Shown here: piece by piece, positions 36,018 through 45,517 of the stretch
Layout: each line of letters begins with the position of its first letter
Position numbering within the stretch: the first letter of the stretch is position 1
NCBI RefSeq assembly: GCF_024223415.1
Contig: NZ_CP100500.1
DNA from: Escherichia coli
GTDB lineage: Bacteria; Pseudomonadota; Gammaproteobacteria; Enterobacterales; Enterobacteriaceae
Reading direction: 5' to 3' (one strand)
DNA: 64,000 bases
Notes under the pieces: generated by a model
Told to the model about the DNA's origin: nothing
The model's database searches: none
The model's input: only the letters and a program-made list of their open reading frames with translations
Position numbers and translations under genes: made by a program

Positions 36018-36307
36018 ATAAATCTCCATTTATCATTTATGTCGTAAATATGTAATCCATGCAAAATACGTCATTTAAAGCTGGCGTTATCATAATTGGG
36101 AAATTGCGACTTTAATAAGTGGAAGTGTGAGCGGAACGAACCATTTTATTAGGCATTTGTGCTGAAGATGGAAAAGTACGGCATATTTATTACTATCATC
36201 AATAATGTGACCTGACTTATATTTTTATTATTTATATTACTTTCAGCTTTCACTTCGACAAGAAGTACGCACAATGATTAATCAGATGAATGATGCGGAG
36301 TGTAACC

Positions 36308-37015
36308 ATGAAACCCGTCGTGCTGGTGGTGGATGATGACACGGCTATCTGCGCACTGTTGCAGGACGTGTTAAGTGAACATGTCTTTACGGTTTCAGTC
36401 TGCCATACCGGACAGGAGGCCATATTGCGTATTGAGGGCGATCCTGACATTGCGCTGGTGGTGCTGGATATGATGCTACCCGATACCAACGGCCTGAGGG
36501 TATTGCAGCAAATCCAGAAACTGCGTCCGACATTGCCGGTGGTGATGTTGACCGGCATGGGCAGTGAGTCTGATGTGGTGGTCGGGCTGGAAATGGGCGC
36601 GGATGATTACATCTGCAAACCGTTCACCCCGCGGGTGGTGGTCGCACGACTGAAAGCGGTGTTGCGACGGGTTGGTGCGCTGGCGGTTAATGACGAGAAA
36701 AGCGCCGGGCTGTCATTCAATGGCTGGTATCTCGATACCATGCGCTGCCAGTTGCACAATCCGCTTCAGCAACATGTCGAGTTAACTCAGGGCGAATATG
36801 GCTTGTTACTGGCTCTGGCGCAAAACGCGCGTCGGGTATTGAGCCGCGAGCAGTTGCTGGCGTTCACCCACAGCGACAGCGTGGAGGTGTTTGATCGCAC
36901 CATCGACGTATTAATCATGCGCTTACGACGCAAAATCGAACTCAACCCGCATCAGCCGATGTTGATTAAAACTCTGCGCGGTCTGGGGTATGTCTTCGCT
37001 GCCGACGTGCATTAA
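36308..37015 (+). CDS. OmpR-family (TorR-like) response regulator of the accessory cluster
   Basis: ORF 36290..37015; start at MKPVVLVVDDD (GGAG 8 nt upstream); receiver domain plus winged-helix C-terminus with VGLEMGADDY and FAADV motifs resembling TorR. Confidence 0.85.
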   Translation: MKPVVLVVDDDTAICALLQDVLSEHVFTVSVCHTGQEAILRIEGDPDIALVVLDMMLPDTNGLRVLQQIQKLRPTLPVVMLTGMGSESDVVVGLEMGADDYICKPFTPRVVVARLKAVLRRVGALAVNDEKSAGLSFNGWYLDTMRCQLHNPLQQHVELTQGEYGLLLALAQNARRVLSREQLLAFTHSDSVEVFDRTIDVLIMRLRRKIELNPHQPMLIKTLRGLGYVFAADVH

Positions 37016-38013
37016 TCCGACATTTCTGTTTGCAGCTCTTCCAGCGTTTTCGCCCCGTCGATGGCATTGGCGCATAACAGGCTTGCCCGCGCGCAGGCGT
37101 GTGCCAGTTTGATGCTCTCGGTAAGCGTCCAGCGTTCATGGCAGCCATATAAAAATCCGGCACAAAATGCATCGCCCGCGCCGACGCTGCCGATAATTTC
37201 CCGTTGTTCTAACTTTTGCGAAGGGATCCACACGCCGCCCTGTTCTGGGGTCTCTCCCCACGCCCCTTCCGGGCAGTGGATCACCACCCGCTGGCGCACG
37301 CCCGCATCTAACAGTTCACGCGCGGCGGCAGCAATATGCGCGATATGCGGTTCGCCGTTGGGTAACCGAATTTCCAGCCCGCTAAACTCCCCGGCCTCCA
37401 GTTCGTTAATTACCAGATAATCCAGATGGCGCAACGCGGGCAGCACCAGTGGCTGATAACGCGGATCGCCCTTACGGGAGACCAGGTCGAGTGAGGTTTC
37501 AAAGCCAGTATCACGCATTTGCGCCAGCAGGCGTGCGCTACGGGTGCCGTAAACATCGTCCGGCATATCCAGGCTGTCGAGCAACAGTAAATAGCCGAGA
37601 TGGAAAATCTTCATGGTGTTATCGAGCTGATCGAACGCCGGAAGATCCAAAAGTCTGTTTGCACCCGGCGAATGGAAAAACGTCCGCTGCCCGCTTGGGT
37701 CTGTCATCACCTGCGACATCGACGTCGGGGCAAAGGTAGTGCGCTGCACATGCTGACGATTGACGTGATATTGCTCAAGCATCGCCATGATGTAATCGCC
37801 GTCGCTGTCCTGACCGATTAGCCCAACCGCCTGTAACGGCAGCCCGGTGCGCATTTTCGCCAGCGTCAGCAGGACGTTAAGCGGCGCACCGCCGGTGGAG
37901 CGTTCGCTGTGGGTGATCTCCGCCAGCCAGCCGCGCTCTGGCCACTGGATAATCTGATGGACGTGGTCAACCAACATATTGCCTGCGGCGATAATCCCTT
38001 TACGCTCCATCAT
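37012..38013 (-). CDS. PfkB/ribokinase-family sugar kinase
   Basis: 333-aa ORF with conserved GAGDAF anion-hole motif near the C-terminus; start overlaps the aldolase stop (ATGA). Confidence 0.8.
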   Translation of the reverse strand: MMERKGIIAAGNMLVDHVHQIIQWPERGWLAEITHSERSTGGAPLNVLLTLAKMRTGLPLQAVGLIGQDSDGDYIMAMLEQYHVNRQHVQRTTFAPTSMSQVMTDPSGQRTFFHSPGANRLLDLPAFDQLDNTMKIFHLGYLLLLDSLDMPDDVYGTRSARLLAQMRDTGFETSLDLVSRKGDPRYQPLVLPALRHLDYLVINELEAGEFSGLEIRLPNGEPHIAHIAAAARELLDAGVRQRVVIHCPEGAWGETPEQGGVWIPSQKLEQREIIGSVGAGDAFCAGFLYGCHERWTLTESIKLAHACARASLLCANAIDGAKTLEELQTEMSD

Positions 38014-43162: not shown

Positions 43163-43187
43163 GCGATTTTTCTTCACGGAGCGTGAT

Positions 43188-45449
43188 ATGGCGCACCCCG
43201 GACGTCATTTTTTTGCCAGCGCGCGCGGGCGATTGCTGCTTTTGAATTTGCTGGTGGTGGCGGTGACGTTGATGGTCAGCGGCGTGGCGGTAATGGGCTT
43301 TCGTCATGCCAGCCAGATGCAGGAGCTGGTGCAGCAGCAAACGGTGGATGATATGACCGGCAGCCTGAATCTGGCGCGCGACACGGCAAACGTGGCAACG
43401 GCGGCGGTGCGATTGTCGCAGGTGGTGGGAGCGCTGGAATATAAAGGCGAAGCCGAGCGGTTGCAGGAGACACAGCGGGCATTAAAAAGCTCGCTTGCAC
43501 AACTGGCGAACGCGCCTTTAGCGCAGCAGGAAGCCGGGCTGGTGACGCGCATCATCACGCGTAGCAACGAACTGCAAACCAGCGTCGGTGGAATGCTGGA
43601 GCGCGGGCAAAGGCGGCATCTGGAGCGCAACGCGCTGTTAAGTTCGCTGTATCAAAACTTAAGTTATCTGCGGCATCTGCAAAAAGTCACTCACGCGCAA
43701 GATGATATTTTGCTTAACGAGATGAACCGACTGATTGTTGCCGCTATTGCCACCCCCGCGCCGCAGGCGATTATTCATCAACTGGTCGGGGTAATGTCTG
43801 CGTTGCCGACCCACAGCGATACGCCGTTGGTTAACACGCTACTCAATGATTTTAATCGTGAACTGCGTAAACTCGCGCCGCTTTCAGCCGCTCTGGAGCA
43901 AAGCGATCTGGCAATCAGCTGGTATATGTTTCACATCAAAGCGCTGGTGGCGATCCTCAATGGCGACATCAACCGTTACGCCGAACAGGTGGCGACGCTC
44001 TCCGGTCAGCGCGTGGCGCAAAGTTACCAGGATTTGCGCTCCGGCGAGAGGCTGATCATGATTTTCGCCCTGTTAGCGGTGGTGATCACCGCGTTTGCAG
44101 GTTGGTATATCTATCGCAATCTCGGCTCTAACCTGACGGCGATTTCCAGCGCCATGAGCCGCCTGGCGCACGGTGAAGCGGATGTCAGCTTTCCGGCGTT
44201 ACAGCGGCGTGATGAGTTGGGTGAACTGGCGCGCGCCTTTAACGTTTTTGCCCGCAATACCGCGTCACTCGAACGAACGTCACGGCTGTTGAAAGAGAAA
44301 ACCATGCAGATGGAGATTGCCCAAACCGAGCGGCAGGGGCTGGAAGAGGCGCTATTGCACAGCCAGAAGCTGAAAGCGGTTGGGCAACTGACGGGCGGGC
44401 TGGCCCATGATTTTAATAATCTGCTGGCGGTGATTATTGGCAGCCTGGAGCTGGTGAATCCGGACTCGCCAGACGCGCCGCGAATACAGCGGGCGCTGCA
44501 AGCTGCCGAACGTGGGGCGCTACTGACACAACGACTGCTGGCGTTTTCCCGCAAGCAGTCCTTACATCCGCAAGCCGTTGAACTGAAAACATTGCTGGAA
44601 GAGTTAAGCGAATTAATGCGCCACTCCTTACCGGCAACGCTGGCGCTGGAGATTGAAGCGCAGTCTCCGGCGTGGCCCGCGTGGATTGACATCAGCCAAC
44701 TGGAAAATGCCATCATCAACCTGGTGATGAACGCCCGTGACGCGATGGAAGGGCAGACGGGAATCATCAAAATTCGTACCTGGAATCAGCGCGTTACTCG
44801 CAGCAGTGGGCAGCGTCAGGACATGGTGGCACTGGAGGTCATCGATCATGGCAGCGGTATGTCGCAGGCGGTGAAAAGCCAGGTATTTGAGCCATTCTTT
44901 ACCACCAAACAGACGGGCAGCGGCAGCGGGCTGGGTTTGTCGATGGTCTATGGTTTTGTGCGCCAGTCCGGTGGGCGCGTTGAAATTGAAAGCGCGCCGG
45001 GGCAGGGGACAACGGTCAGATTACAGCTTCCCCGCGCGCTGACGGCGGCGAAAAACCTATCGCCAGCGGCAGTAGAACAGGCTTCTGTCAGCGGCGATAA
45101 ACTGGTGTTAGTGCTGGAAGATGAAGCCGCGGTGCGCCAGACCATCTGCGAACAGTTGCACCTGCTGGGCTATTTGACGCTGGAAGCAAGCAGCGGCGAA
45201 CAGGCGCTGGATCTGCTGGCGGCATCAGCAGAAATCGATATTTTTATCAGCGATTTAATGCTCCCCGGCGGCATGAGCGGCGCAGAAGTGGTCAATGCGG
45301 CCCGCAAACTTTACCCGCACCTGACGCTGCTACTCATCAGCGGTCAGGATTTACGCCCCAGCCATAACCCCGCGCTGCCAGACGTGGCGCTGCTGCGCAA
45401 ACCTTTTACCCGCGCGCAGTTGGCGCAGGCGCTGGGGCAAGAGAATTGA
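43188..45449 (+). CDS. Hybrid sensor histidine kinase (2 TM, periplasmic domain, HAMP, HisKA, HATPase, C-terminal receiver; no HPt)
   Basis: ORF 43092..45449; start at MAHPGRHFF (GGAG upstream); TM1 LLLLNLLVVAVTLMV, ~280-aa periplasmic helical region, TM2 LIMIFALLAVVITAF, H-box GGLAHDFNNLL, G-boxes, receiver with DLMLPGG; protein ends at the receiver domain. Confidence 0.85.
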   Translation: MAHPGRHFFASARGRLLLLNLLVVAVTLMVSGVAVMGFRHASQMQELVQQQTVDDMTGSLNLARDTANVATAAVRLSQVVGALEYKGEAERLQETQRALKSSLAQLANAPLAQQEAGLVTRIITRSNELQTSVGGMLERGQRRHLERNALLSSLYQNLSYLRHLQKVTHAQDDILLNEMNRLIVAAIATPAPQAIIHQLVGVMSALPTHSDTPLVNTLLNDFNRELRKLAPLSAALEQSDLAISWYMFHIKALVAILNGDINRYAEQVATLSGQRVAQSYQDLRSGERLIMIFALLAVVITAFAGWYIYRNLGSNLTAISSAMSRLAHGEADVSFPALQRRDELGELARAFNVFARNTASLERTSRLLKEKTMQMEIAQTERQGLEEALLHSQKLKAVGQLTGGLAHDFNNLLAVIIGSLELVNPDSPDAPRIQRALQAAERGALLTQRLLAFSRKQSLHPQAVELKTLLEELSELMRHSLPATLALEIEAQSPAWPAWIDISQLENAIINLVMNARDAMEGQTGIIKIRTWNQRVTRSSGQRQDMVALEVIDHGSGMSQAVKSQVFEPFFTTKQTGSGSGLGLSMVYGFVRQSGGRVEIESAPGQGTTVRLQLPRALTAAKNLSPAAVEQASVSGDKLVLVLEDEAAVRQTICEQLHLLGYLTLEASSGEQALDLLAASAEIDIFISDLMLPGGMSGAEVVNAARKLYPHLTLLLISGQDLRPSHNPALPDVALLRKPFTRAQLAQALGQEN

Positions 45450-45517
45450 GAATCCTCCTCTACTCGTAACAGGCACCTTTGCCTACCTTGTATTAACTTT
45501 GTTGCGAGGCCGAGTTT

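Follow-up and report, generated by a model that had tools for sequence, protein, structure and literature searches.

The DNA analyzed here is a 64,000-nt window (the whole stretch, at its full length) from contig NZ_CP100500.1 of Escherichia coli, and the interval between yjcS and yjdP in it (36018-45517) is very probably the OI-167 island, that is, the lmvR, lmuKAIZYX and lmvK genes first described in enterohaemorrhagic E. coli (EHEC) O157:H7. The cluster is real but is already known and is not a new one; its genes were named by Yang et al. (2023, mBio 14:e03152-22; PMC10128022). Comparison with other genomes was done to survey its distribution, and OI-167 and the allose genes which K-12 carries at the same place (als-rpiB) look like alternative haplotypes of an old, shared yjcS/yjdP-phn locus and not like the outcome of a recent EHEC-specific insertion. 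What is added here beyond the literature, namely the comparative genomics and a predicted fold for the sensor of LmvK, represents modest refinements.

Eight genes were found between yjcS and yjdP, both by the listing of open reading frames (ORFs) and by the RefSeq annotation of the corresponding stretch of E. coli NCTC9112, which is 100% identical to the window over 36018-45517. A first-pass annotation, made from the sequence of the window, had counted nine genes here, although its own list held eight. The order of the cluster is lmvR on the plus strand, lmuK-A-I-Z-Y-X on the minus strand and lmvK on the plus strand, and the layout in strain EDL933 is identical. In K-12 MG1655 the same interval is occupied by alsK-alsE-alsC-alsA-alsB-alsR and rpiB, and hence the first-pass annotation was right that the interval stands in place of the K-12 allose and rpiB genes.

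The identity with OI-167 was analyzed by pairwise comparison with EDL933, in which all eight proteins of the window are 98.7-100% identical to their counterparts. LmvR (235/235 residues) and LmuZ (313/313) are the same throughout, and the others are LmuK with 332/333, LmuA with 284/286, LmuI with 224/227, LmuY with 322/324, LmuX with 505/506 and LmvK with 745/753 identical residues plus a gap of 3 aa. The two islands thus have the same eight genes in the same order and orientation, the same chromosomal site, the same lmuX promoter and the same phospho-acceptor residues. They differ in that the host strain of the window, unlike EDL933, is non-O157, with NCTC9112 as the closest genome, and the island DNA is 99.1% identical to the O157 copies. 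The LmvK of the window is without three residues of EDL933 (NDF 220-222), so that H407 and D689 here are equivalent to the published H410 and D692, and seven of its eight substitutions fall at residues 224-373, i.e., in the periplasmic, second-transmembrane and HAMP part. Residues 219-373 correspond to 43842-44306 of the window; the kinase and receiver domains are nearly unchanged with respect to EDL933.

The regulator gene lmvR (36308-37015, plus strand) encodes an OmpR/PhoB-family response regulator of 235 aa, in which the phospho-acceptor Asp54 is present. It does not reach the threshold of any NCBIfam equivalog (OmpR, 191 vs 331 bits; TorR, 163 vs 275 bits); the first-pass annotation had called it TorR-like. 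On the minus strand, lmuK (37012-38013) encodes a PfkB/ribokinase-family sugar kinase of 333 aa, whose relatives in the PDB are distant only (ribokinases, fructokinases and sulfofructose kinase), and lmuA (38010-38870) encodes a class II ketose-1,6-bisphosphate aldolase of 286 aa which passes the NCBIfam equivalog NF005284 with 575 bits (cut-off 406) and matches class II fructose-bisphosphate and tagatose-bisphosphate aldolases of the PDB with E = 1e-61 to 1e-50. The next gene, lmuI (38885-39568), encodes a cupin-type D-lyxose/D-mannose isomerase of 227 aa, called Z5688 in EDL933, which passes the NCBIfam equivalog NF051472 for this activity with 439 bits against a cut-off of 350; the orthologue in Enterobacter soli matches Pfam PF07385, the cupin D-lyxose/D-mannose isomerase family. 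For Z5688 itself both structure and assay were given by van Staalduinen et al. (2010, J Mol Biol 401:866; PDB 3KMH and 3MPB), as cited in PMC8378251 and PMC10128022, and 224 of the 227 residues of LmuI are identical to this "D-lyxose isomerase" of E. coli O157:H7.

The remaining minus-strand genes encode an ATP-binding cassette (ABC) transporter: lmuZ (39623-40564) a periplasmic sugar-binding protein of the CUT2 (RbsB-like) family with 313 aa, lmuY (40583-41557) an RbsC-like permease with 324 aa, and lmuX (41554-43074) an ATPase of 506 aa with two ATP-binding domains, which is the first gene of the lmuXYZIAK operon. LmuZ has its best PDB match in 4RWE (E = 4e-167) and remains below the NCBIfam cut-offs for AlsB (105 vs 335 bits) and RbsB (150 vs 337 bits). 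The last gene, lmvK (43188-45449, plus strand), encodes a hybrid sensor kinase of 753 aa. With regulator, transporter, enzymes and hybrid kinase all identified, the description of the interval in the first-pass annotation as a self-contained module for sensing, import and catabolism of a sugar is borne out.

The substrate and regulation of the cluster, which the same annotation had regarded as not established, can be considered established because an essentially identical system has already been published. In EDL933, deletion of lmvR, lmvK, lmuI or lmuZYX impairs growth on D-lyxose, and the operon is induced by lyxose and by mannose via LmvK/LmvR (PMC10128022). LmuK has fructose kinase activity, and the island supports growth on mannose in a manA mutant with lmvR overexpressed (PMC10128022). 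D-lyxose and D-mannose were among the sugars that had been suggested for growth tests from the sequence of the window, and they match the published substrates. The genes lmuXYZIAK form a single transcript, for which the transcription start of lmuX is reported, and in DNase I footprinting of the lmuX promoter the stretch from -41 to -62, with the site ATATGA-N3-ATATGA, was protected by LmvR (PMC10128022). LmvR also activates the type III secretion genes of the locus of enterocyte effacement (LEE) in EHEC, and a role of the island in EHEC colonisation has been published as well (PMC10128022).

In the window the 113-bp spacer between lmuX and lmvK is identical to that of EDL933, and the LmvR binding site ATATGACAAATATGA, a direct repeat of the form ATATGA-N3-ATATGA, lies exactly preserved in the lmuX promoter at 43147-43161 (minus strand), being the single match in the 64 kb at no more than one mismatch. 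At three mismatches the pattern gives 54 matches where about 34 are expected. No convincing second LmvR site was found upstream of lmvR, the matches in 36018-36307 being AT-rich runs, and a scan of the island for sigma-70 promoters and terminators gave sites no more numerous than in shuffled sequences. [quoted passage not shown]

It is possible, though unlikely in our judgement, that the main natural substrate is another rare sugar and that the kinase and the aldolase serve some other ketose-bisphosphate route. This idea draws on the published observations that growth on lyxose requires neither lmuK nor lmuA and that the contribution to mannose growth is seen only with lmvR overexpressed in a manA mutant (PMC10128022). 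It also agrees with a reported Km of LmuI for mannose of about 20 mM, with the placement of LmuA in a separate "ketose 1,6-bisphosphate aldolase" equivalog and not in FbaA, with the scatter and the weak E-values of the PDB relatives of LmuK, and with the fact that the cluster adjoins allose/allulose genes in several genera. On the other hand, the induction by lyxose and mannose and the lyxose phenotypes of the lmuI and lmuZYX deletions speak for the published sugars, and the transporter is about 60% identical to Herbaspirillum proteins annotated as mannose ABC transporter (cited in PMC10128022).

The ends of the interval were then located by alignment and megablast. On the left side, homology with K-12 runs at about 97% to about 36178 and fades by 36238, inside the divergent spacer between yjcS (34032-36017, minus strand) and lmvR (36018-36307), and megablast of the left flank shows query positions 1-162 or 1-221 covered in island-free genomes. 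Beyond about 36178-36238 the spacer is specific to the OI-167 haplotype, and over its whole length it is homologous to the yjcS-lmvR spacer of Citrobacter sp. wls619. On the right side, near-identity with K-12 is not regained before about 45545, some 28 nt into yjdP (45518-45847, plus strand). Strong divergence affects the 68-nt spacer as well as the initial codons of yjdP and spares an 18-nt motif at 45446-45463 (plus strand), TTGAGAATCCTCCTCTAC, whose TGA is the stop codon of lmvK. The alignment to K-12 which the first-pass annotation had recommended for its breakpoints therefore puts the left one at about 36178-36238 and the right one at about 45545.

In many enterobacterial genera a copy of the 18-nt motif (consensus TTGAGATTCCTCCGCTAC) precedes the yjdP start by about 50 nt. 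It was found in 41 sequences (40 loci, e.g. L002, L005, L009-L023 and L083, and the window), four of which are the same OI-167 stretch (window, L001, L086) or K-12-type E. coli. The motif is present whether the preceding gene is lmvK, rpiB or an ORF of 210 aa, and it always forms the edge of the variable set; its TGA serves as stop codon for several of the upstream genes and others stop just before it. It may represent the conserved 5′ border of the yjdP unit or else a site at which recombination preferentially takes place. The RNA structure predicted for the yjdP leader, motif included, is not significant (Z-scores -0.8 to -1.8). The 210-aa ORF lies between lmvK and yjdP in Escherichia sp. 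E1V33 (L005, 3340-4125), and similar ends are seen in L010, L020, L022 and L049. It has no NCBIfam match and stands between two copies of the motif upstream of yjdP, one partial (AATTGAG) and one full, and it resembles a cassette gained at the motif site.

Signs of mobility were searched in the window. No integrase or transposase ORF was found in the interval, no repeats bracket it, and no tRNA gene occurs anywhere in the 64-kb window; the nearest insertion sequence (IS) elements are two copies of IS1397, about 10 and 12 kb off. The absence of integrase, tRNA and IS at the junctions had been noticed in the first-pass annotation, to which the absence of repeats can now be added. The GC content, which it had proposed to compare, is 56.4% in the island, an intermediate value that exceeds the 53.2% of the left flank and falls short of the 60.2% of the phn flank. 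On these features the interval does not qualify as an integrative mobile island.

The flanks carry some further features. The two IS1397 copies (IS3 family) are identical, 1457 nt long and in inverted orientation (24285-25741 and 57498-58954), and the 31.8-kb segment between them contains yjcO, fdhF, mdtPON, ytcA, yjcS, the island, yjdP, phnP-C and yjdN. This segment is inverted with respect to the NCTC9112 RefSeq chromosome, which is otherwise 99.9-100% identical, and with respect to the K-12 order. The junction yjdM-IS1397-yjcO was found in none of 5426 complete E. coli genomes (best coverage 79%), and the inversion may be either a real IS-mediated event or an assembly difference. The yjcS and mdtN proteins of the left flank are 100% identical to those of K-12. 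To the right, over 45518-46682, yjdP differs from K-12 by 6.5% in DNA with 89% protein identity, and phnP has 97% protein identity. The divergence from K-12 was searched for a gradient that could mark recombination end points; the left flank stays flat at about 2% as far as the junction, and the right flank shows about 3.4% over 4 kb with no clear decay. The EDL933 record NZ_CP124740.1 annotates the phnO gene beside the island as frameshifted (L086, 11894-12159), and this gene is intact in the window.

The distribution within E. coli was obtained from the same 5426 complete genomes, where als+rpiB and OI-167 were called when at least 80% of the block was present. The als+rpiB block was found in 3367 of them and OI-167 in 410, the majority of which are O157:H7, O55:H7 or O145; about 1621 have only a remnant of rpiB (its last 138 bp, at high identity). 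The other carriers of OI-167 include NCTC9112, a strain of O169:H41 and isolates from water, chicken and otter, and copies of only 96.6-96.8% identity occur in isolates from guinea fowl and pigeon. The remnant haplotype was looked at in E. coli ws5-3 (L003, 12001-12640), which has neither the allose genes nor the island. Here the alsK terminator is accompanied by two fragments of rpiB, which carry the annotation of a 105-aa RpiB-family protein, and by about 78 bp of sequence that could not be placed; the haplotype is an als-type allele shortened by internal deletions. A specific tie of this short haplotype to OI-167 was considered and dropped, as the identity of its left spacer is similar with K-12 (92.4%) and with the window (91.4%). 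From these counts we infer that three haplotypes coexist in E. coli, namely als+rpiB, lmv/lmu and remnant-only.

Outside E. coli, a scan of a species-representative genome collection for LmuI gave 79 loci. By tblastn with the proteins of the window, the complete syntenic cluster was found in Citrobacter, Enterobacter, Lelliottia, Leclercia, Kosakonia, Buttiauxella, Serratia, Yersinia pestis and other genera too. Protein identity to Citrobacter is 96-99% for LmuZ and LmuY, 94% for LmuX, 91% for LmuA, 89% for LmuK, 87% for LmuI, 82% for LmvK and 78% for LmvR, and the island copy of Escherichia sp. E1V33 has 95-99% DNA identity. In Citrobacter, several Enterobacter, Leclercia and others, lmvK adjoins yjdP and phnP-phnO as in the window, and in Citrobacter sp. 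wls619 lmvR faces yjcS. In Enterobacter soli LF7a the genes run as phnL-M-N-O-P, yjdP, rpiB, alsR-B-A-C-E-K, lmvK, lmuX-Y-Z-I-A-K and lmvR. The alsK gene stands beside lmvK in six more loci, in Enterobacter sp. CC120223-11, Huaxiibacter, Kosakonia oryziphila, Phytobacter ursingii, a metagenome-assembled genome from soil and Lelliottia sp. WAP21. The K-12 arrangement is equivalent to the tandem of the E. soli type minus lmv/lmu, that of the window to the tandem minus als-rpiB, and the short allele to the tandem minus nearly all of it. Since lmv/lmu stands in tandem with als in E. soli and others, the "replacement" in E. coli looks like a case of alternative haplotypes. The synonymous divergence (pS) of the window from Citrobacter and Enterobacter is 0.41-0.76 for the island genes and 0.43-0.73 for phnL-P and yjcS; as the two ranges are about the same, none of the sampled genera is a recent donor. 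The first-pass annotation had taken the interval for old and not recently mobile, and this pS and the junctions common to Citrobacter and Enterobacter point the same way.

The literature frames OI-167 as a recent, EHEC-specific mobile genomic island which inserted here and displaced the allose genes, and we regard this as quite improbable. It would explain why only 410 of the 5426 E. coli carry the island, most of them O157:H7, O55:H7 or O145, and why a PCR survey scored 98.5% of EHEC isolates as positive and every other pathotype as negative (PMC10128022); the divergence of yjdP and of the phn flank from K-12, higher than the 2.0% of the left flank, is also compatible with an imported haplotype. 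It does not explain junctions devoid of integrase, tRNA, IS and direct repeats, a GC content unremarkable for the neighbourhood, junctions common to Citrobacter (and for the right one also to Enterobacter), a divergence from each sampled genus as high as that of flanking core genes, or the occurrence of the island in non-EHEC strains, in Escherichia sp. E1V33 and in the E. coli copies of 96.6-96.8% identity. Homologous recombination could have brought the island in from another Escherichia lineage, and the entry into the O157 lineage could have been by that route or by vertical retention. That the eight genes are diverged als/rpi orthologues, which the first-pass annotation had named as a finding that would overturn its view, has next to no chance of being correct. 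The transporter parts do belong to the same CUT2 family, with 29% (AlsB), 36% (AlsC) and 41% (AlsA) identity to the K-12 proteins, but besides the low AlsB score of the binding protein the permease reaches 233 vs 396 bits for AlsC and the ATPase 493 vs 772 bits for AlsA, and tblastn finds no alsK (ROK), alsE, alsR (RpiR-type) or rpiB in the island, which has a cupin isomerase, a PfkB kinase, a class II aldolase and a two-component system instead. The presence of both gene sets side by side in Enterobacter soli refutes this idea. The als operon alsRBACEK-rpiB of K-12 resembles the cluster in its location between yjcS and yjdP and in having a CUT2 transporter together with enzymes for rare-sugar catabolism, and it differs from lmu in its ROK kinase, epimerase and RpiB and in an RpiR-type repressor in place of the two-component system.

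Some points weigh against the interpretation of the interval as OI-167 and as one of two alternative haplotypes of an old locus. The two modules were not seen in tandem in any Escherichia genome, and the left flank is yjcS in only two loci outside E. coli. Synonymous sites are near saturation, so that a test on the synonymous substitution rate (dS) has little power, and since all variants end at the same motif, the shared junctions could mean a hot spot or selection and not common descent. The identity of the interval with the island is derived from sequence and from published work on EDL933, and the virulence role of LmvR depends on the LEE island.

The sensor kinase was also analyzed. According to Pfam and hydropathy, LmvK has a first transmembrane segment (about 15-38), a helical periplasmic domain (about 39-288), a second transmembrane segment (about 288-308), HAMP, HisKA with His407, HATPase_c and a receiver with Asp689; Pfam gave no Hpt domain in the protein and no match in residues 39-288. 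Residues 1-380 were modelled by AlphaFold2 with 38 orthologues, which gave a mean pLDDT of 76 and an all-helical periplasmic part at 80-94. In a Foldseek search of the PDB the best match of the sensor is the Vibrio TorS sensor 3I9Y (target-normalised TM-score 0.76, root-mean-square deviation 3.5 Å, probability 1.0), followed by the TorS-TorT complexes 3O1H/I/J and then by the helical bimodular (HBM) domains of McpS and PilJ. For LmvK this predicts a periplasmic double helical bundle of the TorS/HBM type. This prediction is to be read with caution, as the match to 3I9Y has 14% identity and a Foldseek E-value of 1.2e-3, is one of fold only and comes from a model for which the 38 sequences used are rather alike.

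In the published model it is left open how the sugar is bound, and an Hpt protein without a name is drawn in (PMC10128022). By analogy with TorS-TorT and VirA-ChvE, LmvK may read the ligand-bound LmuZ rather than the sugar itself, and it may then phosphorylate LmvR directly, without the "unknown Hpt". As to the history of the locus, OI-167 may be one of two adjacent ancestral rare-sugar modules (with als-rpiB) of the yjdP-phn region of Enterobacteriaceae, which was lost by most E. coli and kept by the O157 lineage, and LmvR may be an old metabolic regulator which was later co-opted for the control of LEE. All of these together, i.e., co-sensing through LmuZ, direct phosphorylation of LmvR and an ancestral, non-foreign module with LEE co-option, form a joint proposal that we put forward tentatively and consider somewhat doubtful as a whole.

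OI-167 is usually presented as a horizontally acquired, EHEC-associated island, and the comparative results could adjust this description: the cluster is found at the same site in many enterobacterial genera, sometimes beside the allose genes it is said to have displaced, and also in non-EHEC E. coli. The question then shifts from what EHEC acquired to how an old sugar-sensing regulator gained control over type III secretion. The TorS-like fold offers a testable idea for the detection of sugar by LmvK, a step left open in the published work.

Among known systems, the TMAO-sensing TorS/TorT/TorR and the VirA/VirG/ChvE of Agrobacterium are close in design. TorS senses its ligand through the RbsB-like protein TorT, while McpS binds ligands directly. 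LmvK/LmvR has in common with the Tor system a membrane hybrid kinase, a sensor that is predicted for LmvK to be a double helical bundle, and an OmpR-family partner, and the RbsB-like LmuZ, encoded near lmvK, is a candidate analogue of TorT with a weak match to a TorT model (E = 6e-11). Unlike TorS, LmvK is without Hpt and stays far below the cut-offs of the TorS models (138 vs 676 and 81 vs 982 bits). A TorS/TorR-type phosphorelay was discarded on the 138-bit TorS score, the TorR score of LmvR and the missing Hpt, the likeness being confined to the fold of the sensor. With VirA the comparison is one of architecture only: LmvK scores 219 bits against a cut-off of 647 on a VirA-like model and has no phenolic-sensing linker, but the order of its parts, transmembrane-periplasmic-transmembrane-linker-kinase-receiver without Hpt and with an OmpR-family partner, is that of VirA, and VirG is the second-best NCBIfam neighbour of LmvR. 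In VirA/VirG/ChvE monosaccharides are sensed via the periplasmic binding protein of an ABC transporter, and the kinase phosphorylates its regulator directly.

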